This document shows positions 32,641 to 50,572 of a DNA stretch of 58,687 bases, one piece after another. Each line of letters opens with the position of its first letter. The stretch's first letter is position 1. The notes under the pieces are model-generated. The model was not told the DNA's origin and searched no databases. It saw only the letters and a program-made list of their open reading frames with translations. A program made the position numbers and the translations under genes. Source of the DNA: Thermodesulfobacteriota bacterium (GTDB lineage: Bacteria; Desulfobacterota; BSN033; UBA1163); the NCBI GenBank assembly GCA_049684675.1, contig JBAVGF010000308.1, positions 1 to 58,687 of the forward strand, given 5' to 3'.

Positions 32641-32673
32641 CCGGGACCTTTAAATGCAACGGATGGATAAGCC

Positions 32674-34731
32674 ATGCTGAGTTACGAGACCATTCTAACG
32701 ACTTGTACATACTGTGGTTGCGGTTGTGGCCTTCTTCTCGAGGTCCTCGATGGAGAGGTGGTGGGGACTCTCCCGCAAAAGGATCATCCCGTCAGTGAGG
32801 GGAAGCTTTGCATTAAGGGATGGAATGCCCACGAATTCATCCATGATCAGGGAAGACTGAAGGAACCTCTTTTGAGAAAGGACGGCTTGCTGAAAAAGGC
32901 ATCTTGGGAAGAGGCCTTTGATGAAGTCGCTTTTCGCCTCAAGAGAATCAAGGAAGAAAGTGGGTCAGATAGCATCGCAGGTTTGACCTCAGCCAAATGT
33001 ACCAATGAGGAGAACTATCTTTTTCAAAAGTGGATGAGAGCAGTGATCGGGACAAATAATGTGGATCACTGTGCTCGTCTCTGACACTCCTCCACGGTGG
33101 CTGGTCTAGCCAAATCATTTGGAAGCGGGGCCATGACCAATGCGATTCCGGAGCTGGAAGATTCGGACTGTATCTTAATCACAGGGTCTAACACGACAGA
33201 GGCCCATCCTCTTGTGGCGAGCCGGATCTTGAAGGCAAAAGAAAAAGGTGCGAAGTTGATCGTTATCGATCCAAGAAGGACACAAATGGCCCGTTACGCC
33301 GATGTCTTTGTTCGGCAGCGATTAGGCACCGACGTCGCATGGATCAATGGGATCATGCACATCATTCTTAAGGAGGGGTGGGAGAGTAAAGAATTCGTCG
33401 GAGCCCGTACCGAGGGATTCGATGAACTGAAGAGGGAGCTTGAGAACTATCCTCCGGAAAAGGTCGAAGAGATCACCGGTATCTCGAAAACCGATTTGAG
33501 GGAGATTGCTCGAACCTTTGCGAAAGCTAAAAGGGGGAGTATCGTATATGCGATGGGAATCACCCAGCATGTAACGGGAACCGACAATGTTCTCTCTCTT
33601 GCCAATTTGGCAATGCTCACCGGGAACATTGGAAGGCTGAGCACAGGCGTCAATCCCCTTCGGGGTCAGAATAATGTCCAGGGTGCCTGTGACATGGGTG
33701 GGCTTCCCAATGTTTATACGGGGTATCAGAGTGTGGCCGATGAGGGGGTGGCCAAAAAATTTGAGGAGACCTGGAATACGCGTCTTTCGAGGAAACCCGG
33801 TCTCACCATGATGGAGATCTTTCAGGCCATCGATGAAGGAAAAGTAAAGGCACTCTACATCATGGGTGAAAACCCGCTGGTGAGTGACCCGGATCTTCAT
33901 CATGCGGAGAAGATTTTAAAGAAATTGGAACTGCTGGTTGTCCAGGACATCTTCCTCACAGAAACCGCCAAGATCGGCCATGTCGTTCTTCCGGGGGCAA
34001 GCTTTGCAGAGAAGGAAGGAACCTTCACTTCTACGGATCGCAGGGTTCAGAGGGTTAGAAAGGCGATTGAACCGCTGGGAAAAGCGAAACAGGACTGGCA
34101 GATCATTTCCAGTATTGCCCAGAAAATGGGGGCTCGGGGTTTTGAGCATTCTTGCCCTGAGGAAATCTTCGACGAGATGAGAAAGCTTACTCCTATTTAT
34201 CAAGGAATCACATACGAGAAGGTAGAGAAAGATGGAGTTCAATGGCCCTGTCGAACTCCTGAGGACAAGGGAACTTCATTCCTTCACAAAGATCAGTTCT
34301 CAAAAGGTAAAGGATCCTTCTTCCCGGTCCCGTATCGGGAGCCTGCGGAACTGGTCGATGAAGAGTTTCCTTTCTGGCTGACTACAGGAAGGATGGGTTT
34401 CCACTATCATACAAGGACGATGACCGGAGTTTCTCCATCTTTGCAGAAGGAGGCAGAGGAGGGATTTATGGAGATCAATCCCTTCGACGCCACCCGCCTG
34501 GGAGTTCAAGAAGGGGAGCGGGTAAGAGTCATTTCTCGAAGGGGTGAGATTGAGACCAAGGTGACGTTAACGTTCAGCGTTGGTCGAAATGTCGTCTTCA
34601 TTCCCTTCCATTTTGTTGAAAGCGCGGCCAATGCTTTGACGAATAGAGCCTTCGATCCTGTGGCGAAGATCCCTGAATATAAGGTTTGTGCCGTCAAAGT
34701 GGAGAAGATCGAAGAAAGGATAAATGCCTGA
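32674..34731 (+). CDS. fdhA: Formate dehydrogenase catalytic subunit (Mo/W-bis-PGD), selenocysteine-containing, cytoplasmic type, copy 1
   Basis: Track ORFs 32674..33084 and 33097..34731 share one frame and join through TGA 33082-33084. The junction [30 protein letters not shown] matches the FdhH/FdhA CAR(V)UH..SVAG active-site context. N-terminal [4Fe-4S] motif CTYCGCGCG. No twin-arginine signal. Confidence 0.9.
33082..33112 (+). other. UGA (Sec) codon plus SECIS-like hairpin
   Basis: TGA 33082-33084, then TGGCT-GGTCT-AGCCA at 33098-33112. The GGUC-containing loop resembles that of the E. coli fdhF SECIS. Confidence 0.65.
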
Positions 34732-37700
34732 TGTCAAGAGTCGGTGTTTTTGTCTGCCACTGAGGAACGAATATCGCGTCCGTGGTTGACGTGAAGGCAG
34801 TGGTGGAAGCAGTCAAAGAATTTTCAGAGGTGGCTTATGCCACGGACCTCCCCTATACGTGCTCCAGCCAGGGGCAGGGAGTGATCAAGGACGCCATCCA
34901 AAAGCATCGTCTGGATCGAATAGTCGTTTCGTCCTGCAGCCCGAGGATGCATGAGATTACTTTTCAGCGGTGTATCGAAGCCGGAGGACTGAACCGGTAT
35001 CTCTTTGAAATGGCCAATATTCGAGAGCAGGTCTCCTGGGTGACCTTGGATAAAGAAGAGGCGACCCAGAAAGCAATCCGGTTGACAGAGATGGCTATCT
35101 CAAAGGCTTCACAACTTCAATCCCTGACACCGCTGAAATCTCCCGTAGAAAAACGCGTTTTGGTAATCGGAGGAGGTATCTCCGGCATTCAGGCTGCGCT
35201 GGACGTTAGCCTAGCAGGATACAAAGTCACTCTCGTGGAAAAACTTCCAACCCTGGGTGGGCGGATGGCCCAGCTGGAGAAAACTTTTCCGACCCTCGAC
35301 TGCTCTGCCTGAATACTTGCGCCAAGGATGACGGAGTCATCCAACGATGAAAATATTGAGATTCTTACCTACTCTGAAGTGGTCGATGTGAAGGGCTATG
35401 TGGGCAACTTCGATGTGACCATCCGAAAGAAACCCCGTTATGTGGATATGTCCAAATGCACAGCCTGTGCAGATTGTGTCAGCCAGTGTCCGGTCTCCCT
35501 TTCGAGCGAATTCAATCTGGGACTCGGAAAAAGAAAAGCGATCTATCTTCCTTTTCCCCAGGCGGTTCCTCTCAAATATACGATCGACCGACGCGGCACG
35601 CCTCCCTGTGAAGCTTCCTGCCCGATTCACGTCAATGCTCAGGGATACATTGCTCTTATCTCGGCGGGAAAGTTCGAAGAAGCCCTGGCACTGGTTAGGG
35701 AGAAGAATCCATTTCCGGGCATTACGGGTCGAATATGCACCCGTCCTTGCGAGGGAGCTTGCCGGAGAAAGGAAGTGGATGAATCGGTTGCCATTGACGC
35801 CCTGAAGCGTTATCTCTCAGACCATGACGAAAATGGGAAGATCAATGTTCCCATGCCTGAAGAAAATGGGAAGAAAGTAGCTATTGTAGGATCAGGGCCT
35901 ACTGGTTTGCTCGCGGCCCATGACCTGAGAAAGAAGGGTTACGGTGTCACCCTCTTTGAGGCTCTTCCCGTAGCCGGAGGGATGCTTGCCGTTGCCATAC
36001 CTGAATACCGGCTGCCTCGTACGATCCTGAACAAAGAGGTCGAATATCTTCTTGGAATGGGCGTTCAGTTAAAGCTCAATACCCCGATTGGCCCAGGCCT
36101 CTCCTTGAAAGACCTCAAAACTCGGGGGTATCAAGCCATCTTTGTCGCGACAGGGGCCCATCGGAGCAGAAAGCTTGGCCTCGAGGGAGAGAGTGCCCGA
36201 GGTGTCATCCATGCTGTCGATTTTCTAAAAAGAGTGGCTCTTGGTGAATCGGTGAAAGTAGGAGAGAAGGCGATTGTTGTTGGAGGGGGCAACGCAGCGA
36301 TTGATGCAGCGAGGACTGCGCTTCGTCTCGGTTCACGGGAGGTCACAATCGTCTATCGCCGAACCCGCAACGAAATGCCCGCTCAGATCGAGGAGATTGA
36401 AGAAGCCGAAGAGGAAGGAATTAAGATGGAGTATCTCACCGCTCCAACGCGACTGATCGTTGAAGAGGGAGCTGTTCGAGGAATAGAGTGCTGCCGGATG
36501 GAATTGAAGGAACTGGATGAATCCGGCCGACCCAGACCTGTGCCCATTCTTGGCTCTGAGTTTAGAATCGAAGCGGATACGATCATTCCTGCGATCAGCC
36601 AATCGCCTGATCTGTCTTTCCTTTCCGAAACGGATGGTTTCAGGATGTCCCCTTCGGGAACCATTGAAGCCGACGCTCTCACCCTTGAGACGGGTGTGGA
36701 AGGAATCTTTGCGGGGGGCGATCTGGTAACCGGTCCGCAGACATATATCGATGCCATGGCTGCGGGTCGAAAGGCAGCCATCTCCATTGACCGCTACCTC
36801 AAAGGAGAGGATCTGAACGAGGGCCGAGAAAAGGAAGGGACTCAGAAAGATTATATTCAAATCGATGTCGACGGAGTCGAATACCGAGAGAGGGCCTCCG
36901 TGGTGACCCTCCCCCCCGAAAGGAGAAGAAGAAGCTTTGACGAGGTGAACGCCGGCCTTCGAGAAGACGACGTGATCCGGGAGGCAGAACGCTGCCTCAA
37001 TTGCGGAGGATGCTCAGCCTGCGGAGAATGTTCAAAGTACTGTCAGCCCAAGGCCGTGGATTATGAGATGAAGGAGGAATGGGTTGAACGTAAAGTCGGA
37101 GCCATTATCGTTGCGACCGGCTTTACCCAGTTCGACCTTCGGATGTACGGAGAATATGGCGGAGGCCGCTTCAAGGATGTGATTACAGGTCTTCATCTGG
37201 AAAGAATGCTCGATAGTACGGGGCCTACCGGAGGCCATGTGATTCGGCCTTCCAATGGCAAGGAGGCGAAGCATATCGTCTTCATTCAGTGTGTCGGATC
37301 CAGGGACGAATCAAAAGGCGTTCCCTACTGTTCCAGGGTCTGCTGTATGTACACAGCGAAACAGACGATCCTTCTCAAAGACCATTTTCCAGAGAGCCAA
37401 TCGTATGTTTTCTATATTGATATACGGGCAAGCGGGAAGAATTACGAAGAGTTTGTCAAGCGAGCCCAACGGGAGTATGGAACGATCTATATTCGGGGGA
37501 GGGTTTCAAAAATTTATGAAAAAGGTGACAAGCTCATTGTCCGAGGGGTAGATACCTTAGTGGGAAAACAGGTGGAGGTTGAGGCCGACTTAGTCGTATT
37601 GGCCACCGCTGTCGTTCCCCAGGCCAGTGCCTCAGAGTTGGCGAGGCTCTTGAACATTCCCTCTGATCAATATGGTTTTTATACGGAGTGCCATCCCAAA

Positions 37701-38120
37701 CTTCAACCTGTCGAGGTGGTGACCAAAGGGATCTTCCTGACCGGTTCCTGTCAGTTTCCAAAAGATATTCCTGAATCCATCGCCACGACAGGTGCTGCCT
37801 CGGTCAGAGCCTGTGAGATTCTCTCCAAGGACGAATTGGTTCTCGACCCGAGAATTGCTTTTGTGGATGAGGAGGTCTGTAGCGGTTGTCTCAATTGTGT
37901 TGGAGTCTGCCCCTTCAAAGCCATCCAACCCAAAGAAGTTGAGGGGAAGATCGTTGCGTACGTCCTCCCTACGCTCTGTCACGGCTGCGGAAATTGTGCG
38001 GCCACCTGCCGGACAAGCGCTGCCAATGTCCAGGGGTTTACCGACGACCAGATCAACGCCCAAGTGGCTTCGGTCTTCGAGGTTCTCAGAAAGGAGCACC
38101 TCCTTGAGCTATCTGAATGA
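34731..38120 (+). CDS. hdrA: HdrA-like flavoprotein with an inserted GltD/NfnB-like NAD(P)H-oxidoreductase module (HdrL-type), two selenocysteines
   Basis: ATG 34731 overlaps the fdhA stop (TGATG). The gene uses one frame through TGA 34761-34763 and TGA 35310-35312 into track ORFs 34782.. and 35328..38120 (1129 codons). It reads MSRVGVFVCH-U-GTNIASVVD... and ...EKTFPTLDCSA-U-ILAPRM, matching the HdrA blocks IGV.ICHCG.NI and [15 protein letters not shown]. The GltD-like insert is at about 35589-36985. Confidence 0.85.
34761..34794 (+). other. UGA (Sec) codon plus SECIS-like hairpin
   Basis: TGA 34761-34763, then a 7-bp stem TCGCGTC/GACGTGA (one G-U pair) with loop CGTGGTT at 34774-34794. Confidence 0.55.
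35310..35342 (+). other. UGA (Sec) codon plus SECIS-like hairpin
   Basis: TGA 35310-35312, then GGATGAC-GGA-GTCATCC (7-bp perfect stem) at 35326-35342. Confidence 0.7.
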
Positions 38121-38661
38121 AAAGGGGATTCACGGCTTTAAGGATCGGATACTGAAGCTGAGCGGTGAGGATGTCTCCCGGTGCACCCAGTGCGGAAAAT
38201 GCACTGCCGGATGTCCGATCTCTCCAGAGATGGATCTTCAGCCGAATCAGGTGATTCATCTGATCCAAATCAATGACCCGGAAACCGTGCTCCGATGCCG
38301 AACGATATGGCTCTGCGCTTCTTGTCAGACCTGCTCTGCTCGATGTCCGGACGAGATCGATGTCGCACAAATTATGGATTCACTGAGAAAATTGGCAGTG
38401 GAAGAAAAGGTTTCAATCGGTGAGGGAAACGGAATGAAATTTAATGAGTTCTTTCTCGATTCGATTCGGAAGAGGGGGCGTGTCAACGAAATGGAGATAT
38501 TATTGCGTTATAATCTGGCCACCCATCAGCCCTTCAAAGATTCTCATCTGGGACTGGTGATGCTCGCCAAAAGGAAGTTAAGTTTTTCAAACCGTAAGAT
38601 TAAGGGAGTGGGTCTGATCAAAGAGATCTTTAAGAATAGTAGGCGATTCATTAAGGAATAG
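38104..38661 (+). CDS. hdrC: HdrC-like iron-sulfur subunit
   Basis: CTQCGKCTAGCP and CASCQTCSARCP motifs. Probable TTG start at 38104 with AAGGAG 7 nt upstream, overlapping the hdrA end. The upstream ~104 codons of track ORF 37792..38661 lie inside hdrA. Confidence 0.8.
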   Translation: MSYLNEKGIHGFKDRILKLSGEDVSRCTQCGKCTAGCPISPEMDLQPNQVIHLIQINDPETVLRCRTIWLCASCQTCSARCPDEIDVAQIMDSLRKLAVEEKVSIGEGNGMKFNEFFLDSIRKRGRVNEMEILLRYNLATHQPFKDSHLGLVMLAKRKLSFSNRKIKGVGLIKEIFKNSRRFIKE

Positions 38662-38665
38662 CGCC

Positions 38666-39523
38666 ATGCGGGTAGGATATTATCCAGGTTGTTCCCTTGA
38701 GAGCAGTGCAAAAGAGTTTGATCTCTCCCTTAGGGCGATCTTTGAGGTGATGGAGATATCTCTGCAGGAGATCCCCGACTGGAACTGTTGTGGAGCAAGT
38801 CCGGCTCACTCCCTCAATGAAGAACTTAGTATGGCCTTGCCTTACAGGAACTTGGTGAAGGCTGAAGAGGCCGGTTTAAGGAAGATTCTATCTCCTTGCC
38901 CTGCCTGCTATAGCCATATGAGACACACCCATGAAAAGGTAGCACTGGACCGTTCTCTTGGAGATCGACTTCAGCAGATTGTGGGAAAGGGATATCAAGG
39001 AAGTTCGGAAGCGAAGCATCTTTTGGACTTCATCAAGGAGGACGTCGGACTGGGACAATTGAAGTCGAGCATGAAGCGTTCTCTCAAGGGATTGAGAGTA
39101 GCCAGCTATTACGGGTGTCTGACACGGCTGCCCGGAGTAAACTTAGACGATGTTGAGAATCCGGTGATCCTAGATGAGATCGTGGGAGTCCTTGGAGGAA
39201 AATCACTTGACTGGTCTCATAAGACGGAATGTTGTGGGGCAAGTCTTTCATTGACACAGACAGAGATTGCCCTCAGGCTGGTCCGCTCTATTTTAGAAGC
39301 AGCTGAAGAGAAAGGAGCAGAGTGCATTGCCGTTGTTTGTCCCCTTTGCCAATCCAACTTAGATGCCCGACAGGGCGTCGTCTATAAGAACAAAATGCCC
39401 ATCTTCTACATCACGCAGTTAATCGGGTTAGCTCAGGGACTTGGCTATGCCAAGCTGGGGCTGGACGGACTGATCGTAAGCCCCCGTGACCTCCTTCGGA
39501 AAAGAGGGATCATCGAAAAATAG
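38666..39523 (+). CDS. hdrB: HdrB-like subunit (two CCG domains)
   Basis: 285 aa with YYPGCSL...NCCGA and YYGCLTR...ECCGA repeats, characteristic of the duplicated CCG domain. Confidence 0.85.
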   Translation: MRVGYYPGCSLESSAKEFDLSLRAIFEVMEISLQEIPDWNCCGASPAHSLNEELSMALPYRNLVKAEEAGLRKILSPCPACYSHMRHTHEKVALDRSLGDRLQQIVGKGYQGSSEAKHLLDFIKEDVGLGQLKSSMKRSLKGLRVASYYGCLTRLPGVNLDDVENPVILDEIVGVLGGKSLDWSHKTECCGASLSLTQTEIALRLVRSILEAAEEKGAECIAVVCPLCQSNLDARQGVVYKNKMPIFYITQLIGLAQGLGYAKLGLDGLIVSPRDLLRKRGIIEK

Positions 39524-39773
39524 AACCAGCCAACAGTGGATCCTCACAACTCATCAGTTAAGCTTGCAGTTGCAAAAAAACATTTCTAAAGGCGGTTAGG
39601 TGTGCTGAGAAAGCCTTACAGCGGAACCTTTTAGCAGTTTGCCACTATGCTTCCAACCACATTACAAAAGCCACATTGGGCGAAATTGCATATTACCCAT
39701 AAGAAATAGTAAAGAACCGGTTGGTAAGGGTTTTAGAAGTACACTCAACCGCCTTCTTATTGCAACATTAAGG

Positions 39774-40619
39774 TTAGATATCGTCAACGAGACTCCTGAT
39801 GACCTTCATATTTTTCAGGTCTTCGACAGTATCCTTCCTCGGGGTTTCCATAATCCCGGGGAGGTGCCTTAACAAAAGATGGTTGACCAGATTTCTAAAC
39901 CCTTCTAGTCCGATATATCCCTCACCAATATGCCAATGTCGATCTTTTCTCGACCCCAAAGGAGTCTTTGAATCGTTGAGATGGAGGAGATGGAGTCGTT
40001 TCAGGCCAATCGTTTGATCGAATTTTTCCAGGGTCCTATCCATTCCATTTTTATCAGAGAGGTCATAGCCCGCCTCGAAAGTGTGGGCGGTGTCGAGACA
40101 GACCCCCATTCTTTGATGGTCGTGAACTCCCTCTATGATTTTCTTGATCTGATCAAAGGTGTATCCGATCTCCGTCCCTTGTCCTGCCGTATTCTCCATG
40201 AGGAGAATGACCCCATTCTTCACCTTTTCAAAGGCCTGATCAATCCCCTGTGAGACGGCGTCAATGGCTTGATCTTCTGAGGATTCCATCCGGTGACCGA
40301 TATGCATGATCAGGTATTGGGCTCCCAGTTGTTCCGCCCTTTGAAGGTCTGTGGCGATGGAATGGATTGACCGTTTGTAGAATTTTGACTTGGAGGAAGC
40401 AATATTGGGTAGGTAGGGCATGTGGAGAAAGATGGGGAAAAGGACAGGGGATTGAATAGATGACCGGAATGCTTTTACCTCCCTCTTCTTCAGGGGAGAA
40501 TATTTCCATCCCCTCGGGTTTCTGGAGAATAACTGGATGGTTTCGCAGCCTCTGACATGGGCTCTTTCAACCACCTTTGAAAACCCTCCGGCAATGGAAA
40601 TATGGAACCCAAATCGCAT
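39774..40619 (-). CDS. nfo: Endonuclease IV (AP endonuclease, TIM-barrel)
   Basis: MRFGFHISIAGG, ENTAGQG and HLNDSK..GSRKDRH blocks align with E. coli Nfo. Confidence 0.88.
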   Translation of the reverse strand: MRFGFHISIAGGFSKVVERAHVRGCETIQLFSRNPRGWKYSPLKKREVKAFRSSIQSPVLFPIFLHMPYLPNIASSKSKFYKRSIHSIATDLQRAEQLGAQYLIMHIGHRMESSEDQAIDAVSQGIDQAFEKVKNGVILLMENTAGQGTEIGYTFDQIKKIIEGVHDHQRMGVCLDTAHTFEAGYDLSDKNGMDRTLEKFDQTIGLKRLHLLHLNDSKTPLGSRKDRHWHIGEGYIGLEGFRNLVNHLLLRHLPGIMETPRKDTVEDLKNMKVIRSLVDDI

Positions 40620-40719
40620 CGATGCCCCTTGAAGAAGGATTAATTGGAAGTTACAATAAGATATGTAAATGTTTCACCTATTGTCAATAAGAAATTGAAG
40701 GAAAAGTGTGATTTTTCGC

Positions 40720-40748
40720 TTGACAAAAGTAAGCGCTTAGTTTACGAC
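40720..40748 (+). promoter_or_regulatory. Candidate sigma70-type promoter for Fdh/Hdr cluster 2
   Basis: TTGACA at 40720-40725, a 17-nt spacer, then TACGAC at 43-48 of the same decade (40743-40748). It lies 77 nt upstream of ATG 40825. The -10 box is weak. Confidence 0.3.
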
Positions 40749-40824
40749 GGAAGCGTCCGAATAAAAAAATCCACAAGTGATTTAAGAGCCTTTTTCCCTC
40801 AGTCGAGTCAAGGAATATAGATTT

Positions 40825-42597
40825 ATGTTCCTCAGGGTTTCTTTATACATTTCGTCGGTCATTTTTCTGCTCGGTCTGATTTATAAGGTGGCCGGCTGGT
40901 TCCGATACAGGATCGGGATAAGGGCAGGAGAGATTTCAACCTTCACAAGGGTTCTTTCTGCCGTCAAGGGAATCCTCTCCACACTTTTCAGCGCCAAAAT
41001 TCTTACTCTGTTGAAAGTCTTTGTTCTCGATGTACTGCTTCAATTCAGGATATTGAGGGAGGACTTTCTCAGATGGATCATGCACATTTTTATCTACGGC
41101 GGTTTCATGCTTCTCCTCCTGATGCATGCCTTGGACAAAACCATCACCGTTGCCCTATGGAAAAACTATTACCCCACGGTCAATCCCTTTATGTTTTTGA
41201 GAGATCTATTCGGCGCCATGGTCATCGTTGGAGTGATCATTGCGATTTATCGCCGATTCATCTTGAAGGTGCCCCGGATGTTCAGCAATGCGATGGATGT
41301 TTATGCCATCCTCATCGTGGCCATCATTATGTTTTCCGGTATCTTTTTAGAAGCCACCAAAATGGTTGCCTATTCCGATTATAAGAGGATGGTGGATGAA
41401 TATTCTGGTTTGAGTGATCCCCAAGAGCTCAAGTCTTTGGAAGCCTATTGGGTGAAGGAATTCGGAGTCGTTTCCCCAAATTTGAAAGGGCCCTTTGATG
41501 AAAAGATATTAGGGAAAGGCAAAAAATTGCATCAATCGAGTTGTGAAGGGTGCCATGCCCGGCCCCAGTGGGCATTTACCGGTTATGGAGCGGCCAAGAT
41601 CATCAGCCCTATCGGTCTTGGCATTGACAGGGCCCGTCTGCCCAGTGTGCTTTGGTACATCCATGTCTTAGCCTGTTTGGCAGGTCTTGCTTATCTTCCC
41701 TTCAGCAAAATGTTCCATATCTTTGCCAGTTCGATAAGCCTCCTTGCCAATGGAGTAATCGGAAAAGAAAAATTGGCTCCAGCGAACAGAGCCACTCTCC
41801 AAGCGATGGAGCTGGATGCCTGCACGCATTGCGGAACCTGCAGTTTGAGGTGTTCGGTGATCATGGCCTTTGAAGAAATTGCGAATATGAATATTTTCCC
41901 TTCTGAAAAGATCGCCTCCCTCCAGGCGCTTGCCTCTGGTAAGAAATTGAGCCCGCAGGAGCTGGGGCATATTCAAGAGGGGGTCTATCTCTGTTCCAAT
42001 TGCTACCGTTGCACGGTGGTCTGTCCGGCAGGGATCAACCTTCAGGATTTGTGGTTTAGCGTCAGAGAGACTCTTCTTCAGAAGGGATACCCAGAAGTTC
42101 TCGTTCTCTCTCCGCTCTCTTTCTACCGTGGTTTAATGAAGGAAGAAACGGTTCCGAGAGATTACGAGAAGCCCTTGATCCAGGCGAGAGAGGCCATTGC
42201 CGCTCGATGTGATTTGATGAAGAGGAAGGATAAGGTCTTGCCTCTGACGTCCACGAATAGACAATTACAGAGCGGGCTCAATCTTTCTGCCCAGGCAAAG
42301 ACCTTCTCGGCTTGCTTTGGCTGTCAGACCTGTACGAACGTCTGTCCTGTGGTGGGCAATTATGAAAATCCTCAGGAAGCCCTTGGGCTGCTGCCTCACC
42401 AAATCATGCATGCGGCTGGTTTGGGCTTGAGGGATCTTGCCTTTGGGTCAAATATGCTTTGGGATTGTTTGACCTGTTATCAGTGTCAGGAACAATGTCC
42501 GCAAGGGGTCCACGTCACGGATGTGCTTTACGAACTAAAGAATTTGGCGGTCAAACGAGCGAGGGAGGAGATCCTGCAGCCCGTGGGAAGAAAATAA
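40825..42597 (+). CDS. Membrane cytochrome-b-like (NarI/DsrM/HdrE-like) domain fused to two HdrC-like 2x[4Fe-4S] modules, with a CXXCH motif in the large extracytoplasmic loop
   Basis: 590 aa with about six TM helices in aa 1-300. His pairs lie inside TM helices (MHIFIYGGFMLLLLMH; IHVLACLAGLAYLPFSKMFH). CEGCH is at aa 240-244 (nt 41542-41556). These are followed by CTHCGTCSLRCS / CSNCYRCTVVCP and CFGCQTCTNVCP / CLTCYQCQEQCP. Confidence 0.7.
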   Translation: MFLRVSLYISSVIFLLGLIYKVAGWFRYRIGIRAGEISTFTRVLSAVKGILSTLFSAKILTLLKVFVLDVLLQFRILREDFLRWIMHIFIYGGFMLLLLMHALDKTITVALWKNYYPTVNPFMFLRDLFGAMVIVGVIIAIYRRFILKVPRMFSNAMDVYAILIVAIIMFSGIFLEATKMVAYSDYKRMVDEYSGLSDPQELKSLEAYWVKEFGVVSPNLKGPFDEKILGKGKKLHQSSCEGCHARPQWAFTGYGAAKIISPIGLGIDRARLPSVLWYIHVLACLAGLAYLPFSKMFHIFASSISLLANGVIGKEKLAPANRATLQAMELDACTHCGTCSLRCSVIMAFEEIANMNIFPSEKIASLQALASGKKLSPQELGHIQEGVYLCSNCYRCTVVCPAGINLQDLWFSVRETLLQKGYPEVLVLSPLSFYRGLMKEETVPRDYEKPLIQAREAIAARCDLMKRKDKVLPLTSTNRQLQSGLNLSAQAKTFSACFGCQTCTNVCPVVGNYENPQEALGLLPHQIMHAAGLGLRDLAFGSNMLWDCLTCYQCQEQCPQGVHVTDVLYELKNLAVKRAREEILQPVGRK

Positions 42598-43526
42598 TGG
42601 AATTTGCCTTATTTCTCGGTTGTACCATCCCAGCCCGTCTCAATCAGTACGAATCTTCCTCTAGGGCTGTTCTCAAAAAGCTCGGGGTGGGATTGGTCGA
42701 TATCCGGGAATTTAACTGCTGCGGATATCCCCTGAGGAACATCGACTTCAAAGTATTCCTCCTCTCTTCGGCGAGAAATCTGGCCCTGGCCGAAAAGAAG
42801 AATCTGGATGTGATGACGTTGTGCCAGTGTTGCTACGGCAGCCTCAAAAAGGCAGACTTTCTTATGAAGGAGAATGCTACCTTAAAGAAAGAAGTCAATA
42901 CGACCCTCGAGAAAGAGGGTCTGAAATACGAGGGAAGGAGTGAGGTGAAACACCTCCTCTCCGTTCTTCACAAAGGAATAGGCATCGAATCGATCAAAGG
43001 GAAGATGTCAACGACCTTTAAGGGGCTTCGGATCGCCACCCATTACGGATGCCATGCCCTAAGGCCCAGCCAGGTTGTGGAATTTGATAATCCCCTTGCT
43101 CCTACCCTGTTTGATGAACTGGTTGAAGCGACCGGTGCTGAGAGCGTTGAATGGCAAATGAAACTCGAATGCTGCGGGGCTCCCTTATGGGGAATCAATG
43201 ATCAGCTGTCCATGGATTTGACTTTAAAAAAACTGAAGGATGGCAGGAAATCGGGTGCGGATTATATCTGTGCGGCCTGTCCATACTGCCACATTCAGTT
43301 CGACAAGGTCCAGAAGATGATACTCTCTCAAAGGAATGTGAACCACCCTCTTCCCTCCATTCTCTATACACAGCTTCTTGGCCTGAGCATGGGCGTCGAC
43401 AAGAAGGCCCTTGGATTGGAGATGAACGAGATTCGTATCGGCGGGATTGAAGAATTATTAAAGAGTGAAAGAGATTTAGCCGAGGAGAAAGAAACCAAGA
43501 AGGAGAAAGAATCAACAAAGCAGTAG
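42597..43526 (+). CDS. HdrB-like CCG-domain protein
   Basis: The real start MEFALFLGCTIP at 42597 overlaps the upstream stop (TAATG). FNCCGYP and LECCGAP CCG motifs. Lys/Glu-rich C-terminal tail. The track's start at 42459 is an out-of-context extension. Confidence 0.8.
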   Translation: MEFALFLGCTIPARLNQYESSSRAVLKKLGVGLVDIREFNCCGYPLRNIDFKVFLLSSARNLALAEKKNLDVMTLCQCCYGSLKKADFLMKENATLKKEVNTTLEKEGLKYEGRSEVKHLLSVLHKGIGIESIKGKMSTTFKGLRIATHYGCHALRPSQVVEFDNPLAPTLFDELVEATGAESVEWQMKLECCGAPLWGINDQLSMDLTLKKLKDGRKSGADYICAACPYCHIQFDKVQKMILSQRNVNHPLPSILYTQLLGLSMGVDKKALGLEMNEIRIGGIEELLKSERDLAEEKETKKEKESTKQ

Positions 43527-43556
43527 TTTTTTCGATCGTTGAAGGCAGGAGTCAAG

Positions 43557-46500
43557 ATGACACAGAATAGGATCGGTTCAGTCATGGTGGTCGGTGGGGG
43601 CATCGTCGGGATGCAGGCGGCATTGGATCTTGCCAATTCCGGCTATTATGTCTACCTTGTGGAGAGGTCCTCCTCCATCGGTGGTTTGATGTCCCAATTG
43701 GACAAGACCTTCCCCACCAATGACTGCTCCATGTGAATCCTCTCGCCCAAACTGGTCGAGGTCGGCCGGCATCTCAACATTGAGCTTCTCACCCTCTCCG
43801 AGGTGATAAGCGTTTCCGGGGAAGAGGGAAATTTTGAAGTAAAAGTGGTTCAATCCCCGCGCTATGTGGACATGGCGAAATGCATTGCCTGCGGTCTCTG
43901 CGCTGAAAAATGCCCGACCAAAATCGACAATGAATATGATGCGGGCCTTGCTAAGCGAAAATCGATCCATGTCAAGTACGCCCAGGCCGTTCCTCTGAAG
44001 TATACCATTGACCCGGCAAATTGTATCTTTCTTACCAAAGGGAGATGTAAGGTCTGCGAGAAACTCTGTCCTGCAAAGGCCGTCAATTTCGAAGATAAGG
44101 AAAGAGAATTGACCTTCCAGGTCGGGGCCATCATCCTCTCCACCGGATGCGAGGTTTACGATCCGAAGGTTTATGATGTCTATGGTTACCAGCGCTCCCC
44201 CAATATCGTTACGAGCCTTGAATTTGAAAGAATGCTTTCTGCTTCCGGACCCCTTGGCGGACATCTGGTAAGGTCTTCTGATAAAAAGGAACCCAAAAAA
44301 ATCGCCTGGATTCAGTGTGTGGGTTCGAGGGATATGCACGAAGGAGCGAAGGCTTACTGTTCGGCAGTTTGCTGTACCTACGCCATCAAAGAAGCTCTGG
44401 TTGCAAAAGAGCATGCGAAGGGGGGACTCGATACTGCCATCTTTTACATTGATATGCGTACCTTTGGCAAGGATTTTGAGAGATACTATAACCGGGCCAG
44501 GGAAGAAGCCGGTGTCCGTTTCATCAAATCAAGAATCACCCAGATTTTTCCGATGAGTGATACAGGGGATCTTCTCATTCGCTATACAGACGAGGCCCAG
44601 AAAAGAATTGAAGAAACATTTGATATGGTGGTTTTATCTGTAGGAATTGGCGTCTCCAAGGAAGCGGTAGACTTGGCCAAAAGATTGGATATTGACATTA
44701 ACCACCATCATTTTGCTTCCACGGGCAGCTTTGAGCCTGTTTCAACCTCAAAGCCTGGCATCTTTGCTTCGGGAGCCTTCCAAGCCCCCCAAGATATTCC
44801 TTCCGCCGTAATCGAGTCGAGCGCCTCTGCTGCTATGGCAGAAAGTATCTTAGCCGATTCCCGTTGGACCATGACAAAGAAAAAGGAAATCCCCGAAGAG
44901 ATCGATGTCCGCGGCCAATTCCCCAGAATTGGCGTATTTGTCTGCAAGTGCGGGACAAATATCGCTGGTGTCTTAGATGTATCCGCCATTGCCGAATATG
45001 CTCGGACCCTGCCAGGTGTTATTTTTGCGCAGGAGAATCTCTTTAGCTGCTCTCAGGATACTCAAGAGAAGATGGCCCAGATCATTAAGGAGGAGAAGCT
45101 GAACCGGGTGGTGGTTGCTGCCTGCAGTCCCCTGACCCATGAAGTTCTCTTTCAGGAGACCGTGGTCAATGCAGGCATCAATAAGTACCTCTTTGAGATG
45201 GCGAATATTCGCAATCAATGTTCCTGGGTGCACGGCGGGGATGCAAAGGCCGGCACAGAGAAGGCTAAGGATCTTGTGCGCATGGCTGTGGCGAAAGTCG
45301 CTTTATTCGAACCCATGTCTGATCCCCGAATCACCATTAACCAGACAGCCCTGGTCATCGGCGGTGGGCTTGCAGGCATGAGCGCTGCCAAAAACCTGGC
45401 GGCGCAAGGCTTCCGTACCTGTTTAATTGAAAAGGAAGGGGTCTTGGGAGGTCAGGCTCGAAATTTATATCAAACCTGGAAGGGGGAGAATGTTCAACAA
45501 AATCTGGCGAAACTCGCTCAGGAGGTTCAATCTAATCCGAAAATCGATGTCTACTTGAACACCGAATTGAAACAGGTGGAAGGATTTGTGGGCAATTTTG
45601 AAGCCACCATTCAAACGGATGGAAAAGAGAAGGTATTGGAGCACGGTATCGCCATTGTTGCAACGGGTGCTTCGGAGCTAAAACCCGATCAATATCTCTA
45701 CGGAAAGGATCCCCGTGTTTTGACCAGACTGGAGTTGGACGGTAGATTTATAGAAAATGACGCCTCCCTGGGAAAGATCCGTTCAGCTGTTTTTATTCTG
45801 TGTGTGGGATCGCGAATCAAGGAGAGGCCCTACTGCTCCGAGGTGTGTTGTACCCACTCTGTCGTGAGTGCACTCAAACTGAAAGAGATCAACCCCGATA
45901 TGGATGTCTTCATCGTTTACAGGGATATGCGGACCTTTGGACTGTTCGAGGATCTTTATCGTGAAGCCCGGGCCAAAGGAATATTTTTCATCCATTATGA
46001 TGAACATAAAGAGTTAAAAGTCGCGAAGGATCAGAATGATCTTCAGGTTCTCTTCACCTCCCGTGTGCTGAACCGCGAGATGGAGATTCGGCCGGACTTA
46101 TTGATCCTGGCCACGGCCATCGTGCCACCGAAGGAGAACTCTATTTCAAACTTGTTCAAGGTTCCAGTGAATAATGATGGTTTTTTTGCTGAAGCCCATG
46201 TCAAACTTCGACCCATCGATTTTGCCACGGACGGGGTTTTTCTCTGTGGCCTCGCCCACTCTCCGAAGCCCATGGATGATTCGATTGCCCAGGGTCTGGG
46301 CGCTGCGGCGCGGGCTGTGACGCTCCTCTCTCAGAAGGAGATGTACGGCAATGCCATTGTGGCCTTCATCAATCCGGAAAGCTGTGTGGGCTGCGAGGGA
46401 TGCTTAAAGGTCTGTCCCTATGAAGCCATTCGATATTTAGAAGATAAAGAAATCTGCGAGGTCAACGAGGTGATTTGTAAAGGGTGTGGGGCCTGTGCGG

Positions 46501-46586
46501 CTACGTGTCAATCGGCTAGCGCACAGCTCAAGCGTTTCACCAGCAAACAGATCTACGCTCAGATCGACAAGGCCATGGCTGTCTAA
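43557..46586 (+). CDS. hdrA: Tandem HdrA-like flavoprotein (two HdrA units in one polypeptide), one selenocysteine
   Basis: ATG 43557 has AGGAG 6 nt upstream. It shares a frame with track ORF 43803..46586 through TGA 43734-43736. It reads [17 protein letters not shown]...[18 protein letters not shown]. The first unit has CVGSRD..YCSAVCC. The second unit starts at [15 protein letters not shown] and has [26 protein letters not shown] and a C-terminal 2x[4Fe-4S]. Confidence 0.85.
43734..43760 (+). other. UGA (Sec) codon plus SECIS-like hairpin
   Basis: TGA 43734-43736, then CTCGCC-CAAACT-GG(T)CGAG (6 bp with one bulge) at 43742-43760. Confidence 0.5.
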
Positions 46587-46613
46587 ACAAAAAAACGGAA
46601 AAGGGAGTTTTTG

Positions 46614-47045
46614 ATGTCAGAGGAGTTTCGACCCAAGATCATTGCTTTTTTGTGCACCTGGTGAGCTTATGCTGCCGCTGACCTGGCTGGGGTCAGTAGA
46701 ATGCAGTATTCGACATCGATCCGGGTCATTCGGGTGATGTGTGCCGGGACGATATCACCTCATTACGTCCTGAAGGCCTTGCAGGCGGGGGCCGACGGCG
46801 TCTTTGTGGCTGGCTGACGTCTCGGCGAATGTCATTACCAGTCTGGTAATGTGATGGCCAACAAAAGGATGACCTTTTTGAAGAAGTTGCTGGAGTTTTC
46901 TGGCATTCACCCGGAGCGCCTTAGAACGAGATGGGTCTCTTCTGCCGAGGCGGTGGAATTCGTCCATGAGGTTTCAGCGTTTGCGGAGGAGATTAAAAAG
47001 TTGGGGCCGAATCCTTTGAAAGTGAAAGCAAAGGAAGCCGCTTAA
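46614..47045 (+). CDS. mvhD: MvhD/FlpD-like protein with two selenocysteines (U17, U68)
   Basis: ATG 46614 has AAGGGAG about 7 nt upstream. It shares a frame with track ORF 46851..47045 through TGA 46662-46664 and TGA 46815-46817. It reads [79 protein letters not shown]. Confidence 0.85.
46662..46696 (+). other. UGA (Sec) codon plus SECIS-like hairpin
   Basis: TGA 46662-46664, then CTGACC-TGGCTGG-GGTCAG at 46678-46696. Confidence 0.65.
46815..46851 (+). other. UGA (Sec) codon plus SECIS-like hairpin
   Basis: TGA 46815-46817, then CATTACCA-GTC-TGGTAATG (8-bp perfect stem) at 46833-46851. Confidence 0.75.
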
Positions 47046-47052
47046 TAATTAA

Positions 47053-47136
47053 TAAGGTTAAGGTCGAGGTTCAGGCTGAGATTGGGGTAAATTGAAGGTC
47101 GAGGTTGAGGTGATGAATGATTTCCGCTTAACCTTA
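47053..47136 (+). repeat. Intergenic insert with a 10-bp inverted repeat and a 12-nt direct repeat
   Basis: TAAGGTTAAG (47053-47062) is the reverse complement of CTTAACCTTA (47127-47136). AAGGTCGAGGTT occurs at 47060-47071 and 47095-47106. The equivalent mvhD / Fe-S gene gap in cluster 1 is only 8 nt. Confidence 0.5.
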
Positions 47137-47168
47137 GCTTGATCCTAAACCTTAAGTGAAATGAAGGA

Positions 47169-47966
47169 ATGATGGGCACGAAGATTAAAGAAGCTGTTCA
47201 AGCTCTCCTGATGGAAGGGAAGATCAAGGGCTTTCTGGGTCTAATGGAAGAGAATGGCAACATCATGCCGCACCTCTTCTGCGATCCCAAGGAGCTTGAT
47301 CACCTCTCTGTGGGTGATTGGAAGAAAGCGGGCGACGCCCGTTATCCCCTGAATCAATTGATGATTCGATTAACCACGGAACATCCCGAGGAGACGTTTG
47401 CGGTTCTTATTCGGGGTTGTGATGAAAGGGGACTCAAAGAACTCTTCAAGTGGAAACAGTTGAACGAAGAGAAAGTCATCCTCGTAGGACTGGGTTGTCC
47501 GGATGAGCTGGCCAAGGCTTGTGAATGCGAAAAACCATTTCCGGATAGTCTGATAGAGGGTCCAAAGGGAGCAAAGGCAGACAGCGAGAAAGTGGCTCAG
47601 GTCGAGGCCATGGACCTGGACACAAGACTCCAGTTCTGGAAAGCGGAGTTTGACCGGTGCATCAAGTGTTTCGGCTGCCGCAATGTCTGTCCGATGTGCT
47701 TCTGCAACGAATGTTCCCTGGAGGAAGATCAATTGGTCGGGACGGGAGAGATCCCCCCTGCCAACCCGACCTTCCATCTGGCCCGGGCCATTCACATGGT
47801 GGGTCGCTGCATTGATTGCGGTTTGTGTGAGGAAGCTTGTCCGGCGGATATTCCTCTCAGAACGCTTTATAAGAAGGTGGCAGAGATTATCCACAAGGAA
47901 TTCGGATATAAGACGGGCTTCAGCGTGGATGAAAAATCGCCCTTCAATATCATTGAGGTGAGATAA
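47169..47966 (+). CDS. Iron-sulfur protein with two CxxCxxCxxxCP-type clusters, copy 2 (paralogue of 31651..32457)
   Basis: 265 aa with CIKCFGCRNVCPMCFCNEC and CIDCGLCEEACP motifs, in the same position between mvhD and fdhA. Confidence 0.7.
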   Translation: MMGTKIKEAVQALLMEGKIKGFLGLMEENGNIMPHLFCDPKELDHLSVGDWKKAGDARYPLNQLMIRLTTEHPEETFAVLIRGCDERGLKELFKWKQLNEEKVILVGLGCPDELAKACECEKPFPDSLIEGPKGAKADSEKVAQVEAMDLDTRLQFWKAEFDRCIKCFGCRNVCPMCFCNECSLEEDQLVGTGEIPPANPTFHLARAIHMVGRCIDCGLCEEACPADIPLRTLYKKVAEIIHKEFGYKTGFSVDEKSPFNIIEVR

Positions 47967-48007
47967 CAATTCGGTTTTTCGAAATGGAACGGAATAAAAT
48001 CTCTTTT

Positions 48008-48173
48008 CCCCGCCAAAGGCGGGGCTTCCAAATTTTTAGAATGTGGGTTTTTTTATATTTTATAGTATTGAAATAAAGGAATGAATGAGACGCTGGATTA
48101 CTATTGAGGCAGTTTGAATGACTCGGTAAAAGGTTACCGCCCTAAAAATTTTCCAGTCCCGTCTTTGGCGGGA
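48008..48173 (+). repeat. Inverted-repeat element between the Fe-S gene and fdhA-2; each arm contains a CCCGCC/GGCGGG hairpin
   Basis: Left arm CCCCGCCAAAGGCGGGGCTTCCAAATTTTTAG (48008-48039). Right arm CCTAAAAATTTTCCAGTCCCGTCTTTGGCGGGA (48141-48173). AAATTTTTAG/CTAAAAATTT pair across a ~100-nt AT-rich centre. Confidence 0.55.
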
Positions 48174-48232
48174 TCGGTGTACCGTTGGGGACATTTTGCG
48201 AAGCGTTAAGATGTACGAGGTGAAATAGCTTC

Positions 48233-50302
48233 ATGGAATTCAAGACGGTGTTAACCACTTGCCCCTATTGCGGGTGCGGATGCGGATTGCTCCTGGAGGT
48301 CCTCGACGGAAAGATCGTGGGGACGCTACCTTCCAAAACCAGTCCTGTGAACCGGGGGAAATTGTGTGTTAAAGGCTGGACCGTCCATGAATTTGTCACG
48401 AGCCCCAACCGATTGACCCAACCCATGGTGCGGAAAGGCGATGCCCTACAAGAGGCCTCGTGGAACGATGCGCTCAATCTTGCGGCGGCACGCCTGAAAG
48501 AAATTAAAGAAAAATACGGTCCGGATAGCATTGGTGTCTTAACCTCTGCCAAGTGTACCAATGAGGAAAACTATGTTTTACAGAAGTTTGCCCGGGCCGC
48601 CATCGGGACGAATAACATCGACCACTGTGCCCGTCTCTGACACTCCTCCACGGTGGCCGGGCTGGCCGCAGCACTTGGCAGCGGGGCAATGACCAACTCC
48701 ATTGAAGAGATTGAAGGGGCGGATTGTATCTTGATCATCGGCTCCAATACTTCCGTAGCCCATCCCCTCATCGCCACCCGTGTCTATCGAGCCAAAGCCA
48801 GAGGAGCCAAAATAATCGTCGCAGATCCTCGCAGGATACCGATTGTCCTTCAAAGTGATTTACACCTTCGTCAGAATCTCGGAACGGACGTGGCACTGAT
48901 CAACGGTCTGATGCACATCATTCTGAAGAATGGCTGGCAAGACCAGGCCTTTATCGATGAGAGGACAGAAAACTTTGAGCCACTGAAAAAGGTGGTTGAG
49001 AATTATCCTCCTGAAAAGGTATCGGAAATCACAGGGATCCCGACGGCCGATCTGGAAAAGGCAGCAGAATACTATGCCAAGGCTGAGCGGGCGAGCATTC
49101 TCTACACCATGGGCATCACCCAGCACATCACGGGCGTGGACAATGTCAAGACCCTTGCCAATCTGGCGATGCTCACCGGAAATCTCGGGAAGGAATCGAC
49201 AGGCATCAATCCTCTCCGGGGACAAAACAATGTCCAGGGTGCCTGTGACATGGGCGGGTTGCCGAATGTTTATACGGGTTACCAGGCAGTGACCGACCCT
49301 GCGGTTCGACAGAAATTCGAGGAGGCATGGGGAGCTAAACTTTCAGACAAGATTGGGTTGACCGCAACGGAAATGTTTCCTGCTGTCCTCGACGGGAAAA
49401 TGAAAGCCGTCGTCATCCTGGGTGAGAATCCCATGGTGAGCGATGCCGATTGCCGTCACATAGAAAAGGCGCTCAAGGCCCTCGATTTTCTCTTAGTGAT
49501 CGATATCTTCAATACTCCCACTTCGGATCTGGCCCATGTGGTTTTGCCCGGAGCCGCTTTTGCAGAGAAAGAGGGGACGTTTAGCAACACGGAAAGAAGG
49601 GTTCAGTTACTCCGAAAAGCAGTGGAGCCTCCCGGGGCGTCGAAACCAGACTGGCAGATCATCCAGGAACTGTCGAGCCGTTTTGGTTATGCCATAGATT
49701 ATGCTTCGCCCCGTGCTATCATGGAGGAGATTGCAAAGCTTACCCCATCTTATGGCGGCATCACTTATGACCGACTCCAAGGCGATGGGTTGCAGTGGCC
49801 CTGTCCCAACGCCGAACATCCCGGAACCAAATTTTTGCATCAGGGACGATTTTCCAGAGGGAAGGGCTTGTTTACCGCAATTGAATACAAACCCGCCGCG
49901 GAGACGGCGGATGAAGAATATCCCTTCCAACTCACCACCGGAAGGGTTTATGTCCATTACCACACGGGGACGATGACGAGAAACTCTCCTTCGCTGGAAC
50001 GGGAGATCAGTGAGTGTTTTCTTGAAATACATCCTGAGGACGCTGCTGAAATGAAAGTGGCGGATGGTGATTGGGTGGTCATCGCATCAAGGCGCGGGTC
50101 CGTCTCATCCCGTGTGAAGGTGACGGATGCCTCAGGGAGAAAAACAGTGTTCATGCCTTTCCACTTCCTTGAAAGCAGAGCCAATATTTTGACCAACCCC
50201 GCGTTGGATCCCATTGCCAAGATCCCGGAATTTAAGGTCTGCGCCGTAAGAATCGAAAAGATGGGAACAGAATCGAAGCCTTCTCCTGCCTCGGCCAGTT
50301 GA
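48233..50302 (+). CDS. fdhA: Formate dehydrogenase catalytic subunit (Mo/W-bis-PGD), selenocysteine-containing, cytoplasmic type, copy 2
   Basis: Track ORFs 48233..48640 and 48653..50302 share one frame and join through TGA 48638-48640. The junction reads [30 protein letters not shown]. N-terminal CPYCGCGCG motif. By eye about 60% identical to copy 1. No Tat signal. Confidence 0.9.
48638..48669 (+). other. UGA (Sec) codon plus SECIS-like hairpin
   Basis: TGA 48638-48640, then GTGGCC-GGGCT-GGCCGC at 48653-48669, at the same position as the copy-1 hairpin but with compensatory base changes. Confidence 0.65.
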
Positions 50303-50572
50303 TCAGGCGTGCCGGAATCTGGGGCCTCTTAGCCAGGACCGGATCGATTGGTTATCCGCCAGAATCTCCTCTTCTTGCAAAAAGGAATCCTTGGGAAAGG
50401 TCGCATGCGGTGAGATAAATCTCCCTTGCGGCCTTCAGCTGCGAATCGATGGGGTGCCGGTTAGGAGGGCGATACCCGAAACGAGAATGGAGATGTTAAG
50501 AGAATGGAGGAGGGGTTTAGATCGATTTGCGCCAATGTCCCCGCTGGCACAGAGATTGTGGGGAGCGGTCCG

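Follow-up and report, generated by a model that had tools for sequence, protein, structure and literature searches.

A predicted b- and c-type heme membrane anchor with two HdrC-like modules, encoded with Hdr, MvhD and formate dehydrogenase subunits in a Thermodesulfobacteriota bacterium

Introduction

How bacterial HdrA-type bifurcating modules reach the membrane, the quinone pool and periplasmic carriers in sulfate reducers and syntrophs is an open question. To our knowledge, well-studied links between HdrA and the membrane are confined to Qmo and EMO. The DNA considered here is contig JBAVGF010000308.1 of assembly GCA_049684675.1, from a Thermodesulfobacteriota bacterium; the whole stretch of 58,687 nucleotides (nt) that was analyzed is referred to below as the window. 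A gene at 40825..42597 on its forward strand, here termed the target gene, was assigned from the open reading frame (ORF) and its translation, from domain matches and from an AlphaFold model as encoding a predicted cytochrome b/c membrane domain followed by two HdrC-like dicluster modules. All coordinates of the target and of its downstream partner genes are on this strand.

The general plan of a cytochrome b with HdrC-like iron-sulfur (Fe-S) clusters and HdrA-like flavoprotein partners is already known from QmoABC and EMO/HdrF. Within that plan, the target protein is best filed as a membrane anchor of the Hdr/EMO/Qmo type in which the HdrC module is doubled and a predicted c-type heme domain is integral. 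Its identity as a b2c-[4Fe-4S]4 Hdr anchor is considered likely. The family would add a third link between HdrA and the membrane, in which a c-type heme is built into a NarI-type cytochrome b and encoded with a full Hdr-MvhD-Fdh set. It is widespread yet unannotated in curated databases.

Architecture and conservation of the target protein

The ORF starts with ATG, is preceded ∼9 nt upstream by a ribosome-binding-like site (AAGGAA) and encodes 590 residues. An initial annotation, made by reading the sequence, had proposed four heme-ligating histidines, a CEGCH motif and four CX2CX2CX3C motifs; all were found in the translation where it had placed them. In Pfam, the 4Fe-4S dicluster family Fer4_8 was matched over two stretches (E 2.5e-21) and PF02665 (Nitrate_red_gam, NarI) was passed marginally, with 23.4 bits against a gathering score of 22.9. 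A precomputed PF02665 assignment is also present on many homologues. The top NCBIfam matches were HdrC (two stretches) and QmoC, all far under their equivalog cut-offs. A search of the PDB with the single target sequence returned HdrC matches and one insignificant cytochrome c match only; the NarI and cytochrome c matches given below were obtained with profiles. No Pfam or NCBIfam model spanned the loop between the fourth and fifth transmembrane (TM) helices or named the target protein when the target and the loop were scanned, and the impression of an unfamiliar architecture recorded in the initial annotation is in keeping with this. Database names for homologues are '4Fe-4S dicluster domain-containing protein' or 'heterodisulfide reductase subunit C/nitrate reductase gamma subunit'.

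When each GTDB species was represented by a single genome, at least 390 of the scanned genomes encoded a relative. Conservation was assessed in three sets. The first comprised the best 80 loci of the 390 genomes (57-90% identity), all from Thermodesulfobacteriota metagenome-assembled genomes, with locus counts covering the sequences that span the site concerned. The second comprised 95 representatives of 50%-identity clusters (at least 290 residues; 31-59% identity), and the third 55 diverse full-length members. In this last set the invariant columns are essentially H101, M189, W209, C240, C243, H244, H280, H298 and 16 Fe-S cysteines. A search with residues 1-325 gave 647 clusters (50% identity) at E <= 1e-3 and 302 at E <= 1e-10. 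Carriers include Syntrophaceae, Desulfobacteraceae, partners in ethane-oxidising consortia and peat and wetland lineages, and among them is the cultured Desulfosalsimonas propionicica (MBA2881571.1).

Fold and orientation of the membrane domain

An AlphaFold model of the target, with a 150-sequence alignment (30-90% identity) as input, reached a mean predicted local distance difference test score (pLDDT) of 87.9 and a predicted template modelling score of 0.82. A model from 44 close homologues (68-94% identity) was discarded, having a pLDDT of 53 and meaningless Foldseek matches. The top PDB match of the retained model in Foldseek was 9OJN (Mycobacterium smegmatis EtfD/EMO), aligned over the whole length with E 5.1e-6 and probability 1.00, followed by HdrC chains and NarI. 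A profile of the N-terminal 322 residues matched E. coli NarI in the PDB with E 1.3e-5.

The model contains five TM helices. TM1 (residues 2-27; 40828..40905) is predicted to be an uncleaved N-terminal anchor with a periplasmic N-terminus, on the basis of the model helix, the Arg/Lys-rich segment after it and the NarI/EMO topology. Predicted amphipathic connecting helices follow on the cytoplasmic face (residues 39-79; 40939..41061), modelled as helices 39-54, 58-71 and 74-79. TM2 (residues 81-102; 41065..41130), placed by the model and by histidine conservation, carries H87 and H101. TM3 (residues 122-147) and TM4 (residues 156-181), together at 41188..41367, were placed by the model and by alignment with NarI residues 95-142 and are joined by a short Arg/Lys-rich turn (27% K+R), predicted to be cytoplasmic. 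TM5 (residues 272-312; 41638..41760) is aligned with NarI residues 171-217 and carries H280, H298 and the motif LPFSKMFH.

Four lines of evidence, namely NarI homology, the model, charge bias and the requirement for cytoplasmic Fe-S clusters, support a topology with the N-terminus outside and the C-terminus inside, in which the CXXCH loop would be periplasmic. In the 55 diverse members the mean charge is positive in the TM1-TM2 segment (+4.4), the TM3-TM4 turn (+2.8) and the segment after TM5 (+2.2), and negative in the TM2-TM3 loop (-1.5) and the TM4-TM5 loop (-7.3). Because the Fe-S modules must be cytoplasmic, TM5 runs from outside to inside. The loop is thus placed in the periplasm by NarI homology, the model and the charge bias. 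This agrees with the initial annotation, in which a loop of ∼95 residues had been predicted to face the periplasm; its length is here put at ∼90 residues (residues 182-271). The same annotation had described about six helices with the loop between helices 5 and 6. The hydrophilic loop is real, but the model and the NarI alignment give five TM helices and place the loop between TM4 and TM5. The additional helix was probably the amphipathic stretch at residues 39-79. A sixth TM helix at residues 49-77 was ruled out by the model, in which the segment forms surface helices, and by its charge content: the hydropathy peak includes charged residues and the segment is net positive family-wide.

An inverted topology, or a cytoplasmic loop, would make the motif irrelevant to heme c and leave the target an ordinary di-heme b anchor. 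The moderately hydrophobic stretch at residues 49-77 could in principle cross the membrane and shift the N-terminus. An extra helix before TM2 would, however, shift the N-terminus alone, as the cytoplasmic Fe-S clusters fix TM5 in the out-to-in direction; the NarI alignment of TM5 and the charge bias in all five segments disagree with inversion, and residues 39-79 are short surface helices in the model, as in EMO. An inverted arrangement is therefore regarded as highly improbable.

Within this domain, the initial annotation had assigned two histidine pairs inside helices to bis-His heme b ligation, and all four residues do fall in TM2 and TM5 and are near-invariant. They are encoded at 41083-41085 (H87), 41125-41127 (H101), 41662-41664 (H280) and 41716-41718 (H298). 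H101, H280 and H298 are invariant in the diverse alignments and H87 is at least 90% conserved; H87 and H101 are present in 80/80 covering loci, and H280 and H298 in 81/81 sequences including the query. In NarI, H187 and H205 ligate the distal and proximal hemes b, respectively. In the profile alignment the TM5 pair, LWY-H280 ... LPFSK-F-H298, is aligned on IFRL-H187 ... FPFSRLI-H205 of NarI. The predicted ligands are accordingly arranged as H87/H298 for a proximal, cytoplasm-side heme b and H101/H280 for a distal, periplasm-side heme b, and the target would bind two hemes b.

A predicted heme c site in the periplasmic loop

The segment between TM4 and TM5 (41368..41637) is predicted, from its conserved length, pLDDT, charge and loop profile, to be a periplasmic helical insertion forming a c-type heme domain. 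In the model, residues 183-269 form a compact four-helix domain with pLDDT 90-97. The loop measures 88-92 residues in 81 of the 95 representatives, and its alignment is nearly gapless.

CEGCH lies at residues 240-244 (41542..41556). Its invariance and a profile alignment to a flavocytochrome c heme subunit suggest a covalent heme c site with H244 as the proximal axial ligand. All 80 covering loci keep C240, C243, H244, M189, W209 and K179, and the X positions of the motif vary among them (A/M/V/E/I/S and E/G/D/A/Q/S). The 95 representatives keep C240 in 91, C243 in 93, H244 in 94, M189 in 93 and W209 in 93. M189 (41389-41391) and W209 (41449-41451) both lie in the loop, and in an alignment of the loop alone (40 sequences) M189, W209, C240, C243 and H244 are the only invariant residues. 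Invariant Cys, Cys and His with variable X positions and an invariant Met and Trp constitute the usual signature of a His/Met heme c. By our own arithmetic, ∼0.01 CXXCH motifs are expected by chance from the target composition, which would put the loop motif beyond chance. An incidental second CXXCH near residue 390, within the Fe-S motifs, occurs in 7/95 representatives and 16/80 loci and is not conserved. The motif had been singled out as a c-type heme site in the initial annotation, with conservation proposed as a check, and the counts above (80/80 loci; 91-94 of 95 representatives) bear this out.

A profile of the loop gave 78 matches in the PDB at E <= 10, and the best 60 of the 78 were all heme c proteins. 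These matches, with top E-values from 2.5e-5 to 1e-3, included the flavocytochrome c heme subunit 3vrd_A (E 2.5e-5), CcoP (1.3e-4) and 1fcd_C (3.8e-4), as well as bc1 cytochrome c subunits and cytochromes c1, c6, c4 and c550. The aligned part consists of the helix before the motif and CXXCH itself (..ldaelleeGrelheesCasCHakp against a stretch of 24 residues). The Pfam model PF13442 (Cytochrome_CBB3) gave weak matches in 30/40 loop sequences, with a best E of 0.0014. The putative site therefore appears to resemble a class I heme-binding helix, and the domain as a whole appears to fall outside the curated cytochrome c families. As the sole conserved candidate, M189 would probably be the sixth (distal) heme ligand. 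H236 was rejected for this role: it is present in 61 of the 95 representatives, and roughly a third carry Asn (20) or Ser instead. From these data we infer one covalent heme c at C240/C243, probably with His/Met ligation.

Several observations weigh against this reading. None of the 40 loop sequences matched a Pfam cytochrome c model at the gathering score (27). M189 lies 51 residues before CXXCH, unlike class I cytochromes c, in which the Met ligand is C-terminal to CXXCH; with the Met before the motif, a permuted domain or a separate fold would have to be assumed. The window showed no ccm or ccs genes for cytochrome c maturation. One family member, P0154 (503 residues), is without the whole loop, and its TM4 runs directly into TM5 (…TKLTSYTHYQK-IWYVH…). 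P0154 keeps all four heme b histidines and the four Fe-S motifs; it may be a b-only variant that occurs in nature or may result from misassembly. The core of b hemes and Fe-S clusters apparently does not depend on the loop, and the clean loss marks the loop as a discrete insertion. Finally, no gene for a periplasmic or multiheme cytochrome c was found in the 80 loci (flanks up to 8 kb), the sole ORF with at least two CXXCH motifs being a family member. This fits a built-in heme c and offers no candidate for an external partner.

The first three of these points speak for an alternative in which the motif binds no covalent heme and instead forms a periplasmic metal site, a redox or structural disulfide with an adjoining His, or ligands of a non-covalent cofactor. 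Chance CXXCH motifs do occur in Cys-rich proteins, an example being CPYCH of the neighbouring HdrB. Such a role is nevertheless improbable given the invariance of both cysteines and the histidine with free X positions, the invariant Met and Trp, the alignment of helix and CXXCH with heme c proteins throughout the best 60 of the 78 profile matches, and the periplasmic location of the motif. In addition, ccsAB is encoded by related Desulfobacteraceae (PMC5109826).

Two dicluster modules

Two [4Fe-4S] motifs, C333..C343 and C390..C400, make up the first dicluster module (residues 329-404; 41809..42036), assigned by its Fer4_8 match (E 2.5e-21). The second (residues 495-579; 42307..42561), with C497..C507 and C548..C558, is the more HdrC-like of the two; it is the best stretch for TIGR03290 and matched the PDB HdrC chains 8rvu_c, 5odc_C and 7bkb_C with E 1e-12 to 3e-11. 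All 16 Fe-S cysteines are invariant, both in the 80 loci and in the 55 diverse members. The initial annotation had described four CxxCxxCxxxC(P) motifs, equivalent to two HdrC-like units. Both modules are real by Pfam, NCBIfam and PDB matches, but only three of the CX2CX2CX3C motifs (at residues 333, 390, 497 and 548) are followed by Pro, the first being followed by Ser. The target scored 86.4 bits with TIGR03290 against a cut-off of 160, and 24.4 with NF041779 against 350. Since these HdrC scores are under the equivalog cut-offs, the target is described as HdrC-like and not as a CoB-CoM HdrC equivalog.

Gene neighbourhood

The gene directly downstream (42597..43526) encodes an HdrB-like protein of 309 residues with two CCG domains (CCG E 2.1e-25; TIGR03288 256.8 bits, under the cut-off of 345). 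Its start overlaps the target stop by 1 nt (TAATG), and the two genes are predicted to be translationally coupled. An HdrA-like flavoprotein, assigned from domains and synteny, follows at 43557..46586, with an in-frame TGA at 43734-43736 within a 14-residue motif. An MvhD-like protein at 46614..47045, with in-frame TGA at 46662-46664 and 46815-46817, was assigned from reading the translation and from synteny. An FdhB-like Fe-S protein (47169-47966) and the formate dehydrogenase catalytic subunit FdhA (48233-50302; predicted selenocysteine TGA at 48638-48640) come next, and are syntenic in the closer relatives. Where the downstream flank is long enough, HdrB adjoins the target in nearly all related loci, and most loci of the set of 80 show the order target-HdrB-HdrA-MvhD, often continued by FdhB-like and FdhA.

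DNA runs holding window positions 39500-50400 were found in peat, wetland, freshwater-sediment and soil metagenomes. Short contigs from soil metatranscriptomes were 99-100% identical to 41915-42091, within the target, and to 43586-43773, 46161-46320, 46962-47146, 48045-48200 and 48519-48681; these are weak evidence of operon expression.

Six in-frame TGA codons in the window stand at conserved Cys positions (35310-35312, ∼33094-33096, 43734-43736, 46662-46664, 46815-46817 and 48638-48640) and are probable selenocysteine codons. They fall in both HdrA-like genes (FPT-x-DCS-x-U-IL-x-P), in MvhD (two) and in both FdhA genes (HCARL-U-HSS), and ORF callers split these genes. A paralogous Fdh-Hdr cluster lies at 31651-39523, upstream of the target cluster (40825-50302), and encodes an FdhB-like protein, a selenocysteine-containing FdhA, a selenocysteine-containing, 'HdrL'-like HdrA with a fused GltD-like NAD(P)H domain, a 188-residue HdrC and HdrB; its product is apparently soluble. 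Between the two clusters lies nfo (39774-40619, minus strand), which is divergent from the target, and the nfo-target adjacency is retained in the closest relatives (loci L001-L008, L011, L014 and L016). The long ORFs at 43578-44414 (minus), 41073-41384 (plus) and 41668-41976 (minus) use other frames or strands, and each lies wholly within a conserved gene, HdrA or the target. At 10374-12377, a CHASE2 sensor fused to an HD/HD-GYP-type (HD_5) domain is encoded, a membrane signalling protein unrelated to the target.

Proposed electron path

The best explanation overall, and on balance a probable one, is that the target ties an HdrABC-type complex to the membrane and acts as its electron wire. 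The five-helix NarI-type domain would hold two bis-His hemes b and the periplasmic loop one heme c, with H244 as its proximal and M189 as its probable distal ligand. At the cytoplasmic end there would be four [4Fe-4S] clusters, and the second module, a true HdrC-like unit, would dock the co-translated HdrB and, through HdrB, HdrA. Electrons would pass between a periplasmic carrier (the cytochrome c pool) and/or menaquinol, heme c, the distal heme b (bD), the proximal heme b (bP) and the four [4Fe-4S] clusters, and onward between these clusters, HdrB and the flavin (FAD) of HdrA, MvhD and FdhAB (formate/CO2), with ferredoxin as a second partner at HdrA. The cytoplasmic end would be formed by an Hdr-Fdh module that bifurcates or confurcates electrons at a flavin. 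Together the predicted cofactors would make an unbroken wire between the periplasmic face and HdrB/HdrA. That heme c acts as a periplasm-facing entry or exit port is given a little under an even chance.

Heme c might instead serve inside a quinone-coupled anchor of the kind seen in QmoC or EMO, as an internal cofactor held against the distal heme b and tuning or extending a quinol/quinone site. It would then correspond, in covalent form, to the second distal heme (bD2) of the 'twin-heme' in Syntrophus EMO, or resemble heme ci of cytochrome b6f, and the complex would act as a menaquinol:Hdr/Fdh oxidoreductase that either consumes or builds up proton-motive force. In fold and architecture EMO/EtfD comes closest; the heme number varies in EMO-type domains, and Syntrophus EMO has an extra distal heme (10.64898/2026.08.18.745454). 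QmoC (NF038018) is the top NCBIfam match for the membrane domain (E 1.2e-7) and for both halves of the target, and the hemes of QmoC are reduced by quinols (PMC3333476). Polar residues are conserved at the periplasmic ends of TM2-TM4 (Y115, T118, R126, E176, K179 and S182), and the operon is without a partner cytochrome c gene in the 80 loci. A sister subfamily, considered below, has the same loop in a full EMO-like TM-dicluster-CCG layout, in one locus near etfAB. On the other hand, a well-folded acidic domain of 90 residues with a class-I-like heme-binding helix exceeds the need of a quinone-site cap, the distal heme b keeps canonical bis-His ligation (H101/H280) as against the single-His twin-heme site of EMO, and no quinone-site residue was mapped by the alignment. 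An internal role for heme c is given well under an even chance, less than a port at the periplasmic face.

If the anchor-and-wire reading is carried further, the target may stand for an unrecognised class of single-polypeptide b2c cytochromes that couple flavin-based bifurcation or confurcation to the outer side of the membrane. Periplasmic or extracellular donors, or menaquinol, would deliver electrons to heme c, stacked on the distal heme b as a covalent analogue of the EMO 'twin-heme', and HdrA would combine these electrons with ferredoxin for CO2/formate interconversion. A class of this kind is a tentative proposal, with the odds against it. If true, it would provide direct proton-motive-force-coupled reverse electron transport for the syntrophs and sulfate reducers of peat and sediment, and an EMO-like protein of lipoate-dependent, sHdr-type sulfur-trafficking clusters would draw on the same b/c module. 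Confirmation of heme c would call for metabolic reconstructions of the carriers to include a membrane-bound Hdr complex that is linked to formate and ferredoxin and possibly coupled to proton-motive force. The cultured D. propionicica makes direct tests possible.

Relation to known systems

The target is closest in layout to EMO/EtfD/HdrF. EMO, the membrane-bound ETF:(methyl)menaquinone oxidoreductase, combines a NarI-type domain with HdrC-like and HdrB-like domains and has a variable heme complement (10.64898/2026.08.18.745454), and HdrF of Desulfobacterium autotrophicum is split over two genes, HdrF1 and HdrF1' (PMC2702500). Shared with these proteins are the five-helix NarI-type domain with the N-terminus outside, a cytoplasmic HdrC-like dicluster further along the chain that leads to CCG clusters, and the two-gene split, which HdrF1/F1' shows as target and HdrB do. 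The target differs from EMO in its periplasmic insertion of ∼90 residues with an invariant CXXCH, whereas described EMOs bind hemes b only. It has two dicluster modules where EMO has one, it leaves the CCG domains to a separate HdrB in place of a fusion, it has four heme b histidines to the three of EMO, and its partners are HdrA-MvhD-FdhAB and not EtfAB. No CCG domain is present in the target chain, and no etfAB was found in the window.

QmoC is an HdrE-HdrC fusion that functions with the HdrA-like QmoAB, and a role in bifurcation or confurcation has been proposed for it (PMC3333476). As in QmoC, an HdrE/NarI-type di-heme b domain and an HdrC-like module are joined in one protein with HdrA-like partners, and QmoB has an MvhD-like domain. 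The order of the domains is reversed: target residues 55-182 correspond to QmoC 190-320, and residues 491-579 to QmoC 14-95. The target scored 75.3 and 31.5 bits against a cut-off of 300 and has a predicted heme c loop that QmoC is without; it does not adjoin aprAB or qmoAB, its neighbours being HdrB, HdrA, MvhD and Fdh.

In TmcABCD, HmcABCDEF and DsrMKJOP, electrons are passed from periplasmic c-type heme(s) to a NarI-type cytochrome b and on to a cytoplasmic HdrD-like Fe-S/CCG protein. The same functional logic is proposed for the target. In those complexes the cytochrome c (TmcA, HmcA or DsrJ) is a separate protein, whereas the single predicted heme c of the target lies in a loop of the cytochrome b, and they are without an HdrA/MvhD/Fdh module. 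Matches of the NCBIfam models of TmcC, HmcE and DsrM to the target were insignificant (E 0.015-0.12; 12-14.5 bits against cut-offs of 240-300).

The cytoplasmic subunit set encoded in the target operon is that of the methanogen HdrABC-MvhD-FdhAB complexes (7BKB, 8RVU and 9SFI). Those complexes are soluble, whereas the HdrC of the target is tethered to the cytochrome b/c domain through an extra dicluster module. As HdrB and HdrC score under the equivalog cut-offs, CoM-S-S-CoB is an unlikely substrate.

For HotSeep-1, a passing mention describes an HdrA complex with a heme c-binding CCG protein (AMM42179-AMM42180), proposed to take electrons from cytochromes c to DsrC or ferredoxin (PMC10553843). 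The likeness to these proteins is one of description; no Desulfofervidus entry was found by name among the relatives of the CCG-fused sister subfamily. A literature search brought up HdrF, EMO, QmoC and this HotSeep-1 complex and found no description of the target architecture; an earlier mention is possible, a review of HdrA(BC) modules lying outside its coverage.

The sister subfamily (∼706-716 residues) has the same cytochrome b and CXXCH loop, followed by one dicluster and two CCG domains in an EMO/HdrD-like arrangement. It is encoded at 757-2892 of locus L081, 7001-9124 of L082 and 7001-9130 of both L083 and L084. Its neighbours are TusA, GcvH-like lipoate-binding proteins, DsrE/DsrH, lipoate-protein ligase and radical SAM proteins, together with ETF alpha and beta in L082, a context that points to sHdr/LbpA-type sulfur trafficking. 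With the same loop present in both subfamilies, the b/c module appears to have been reused in another context.

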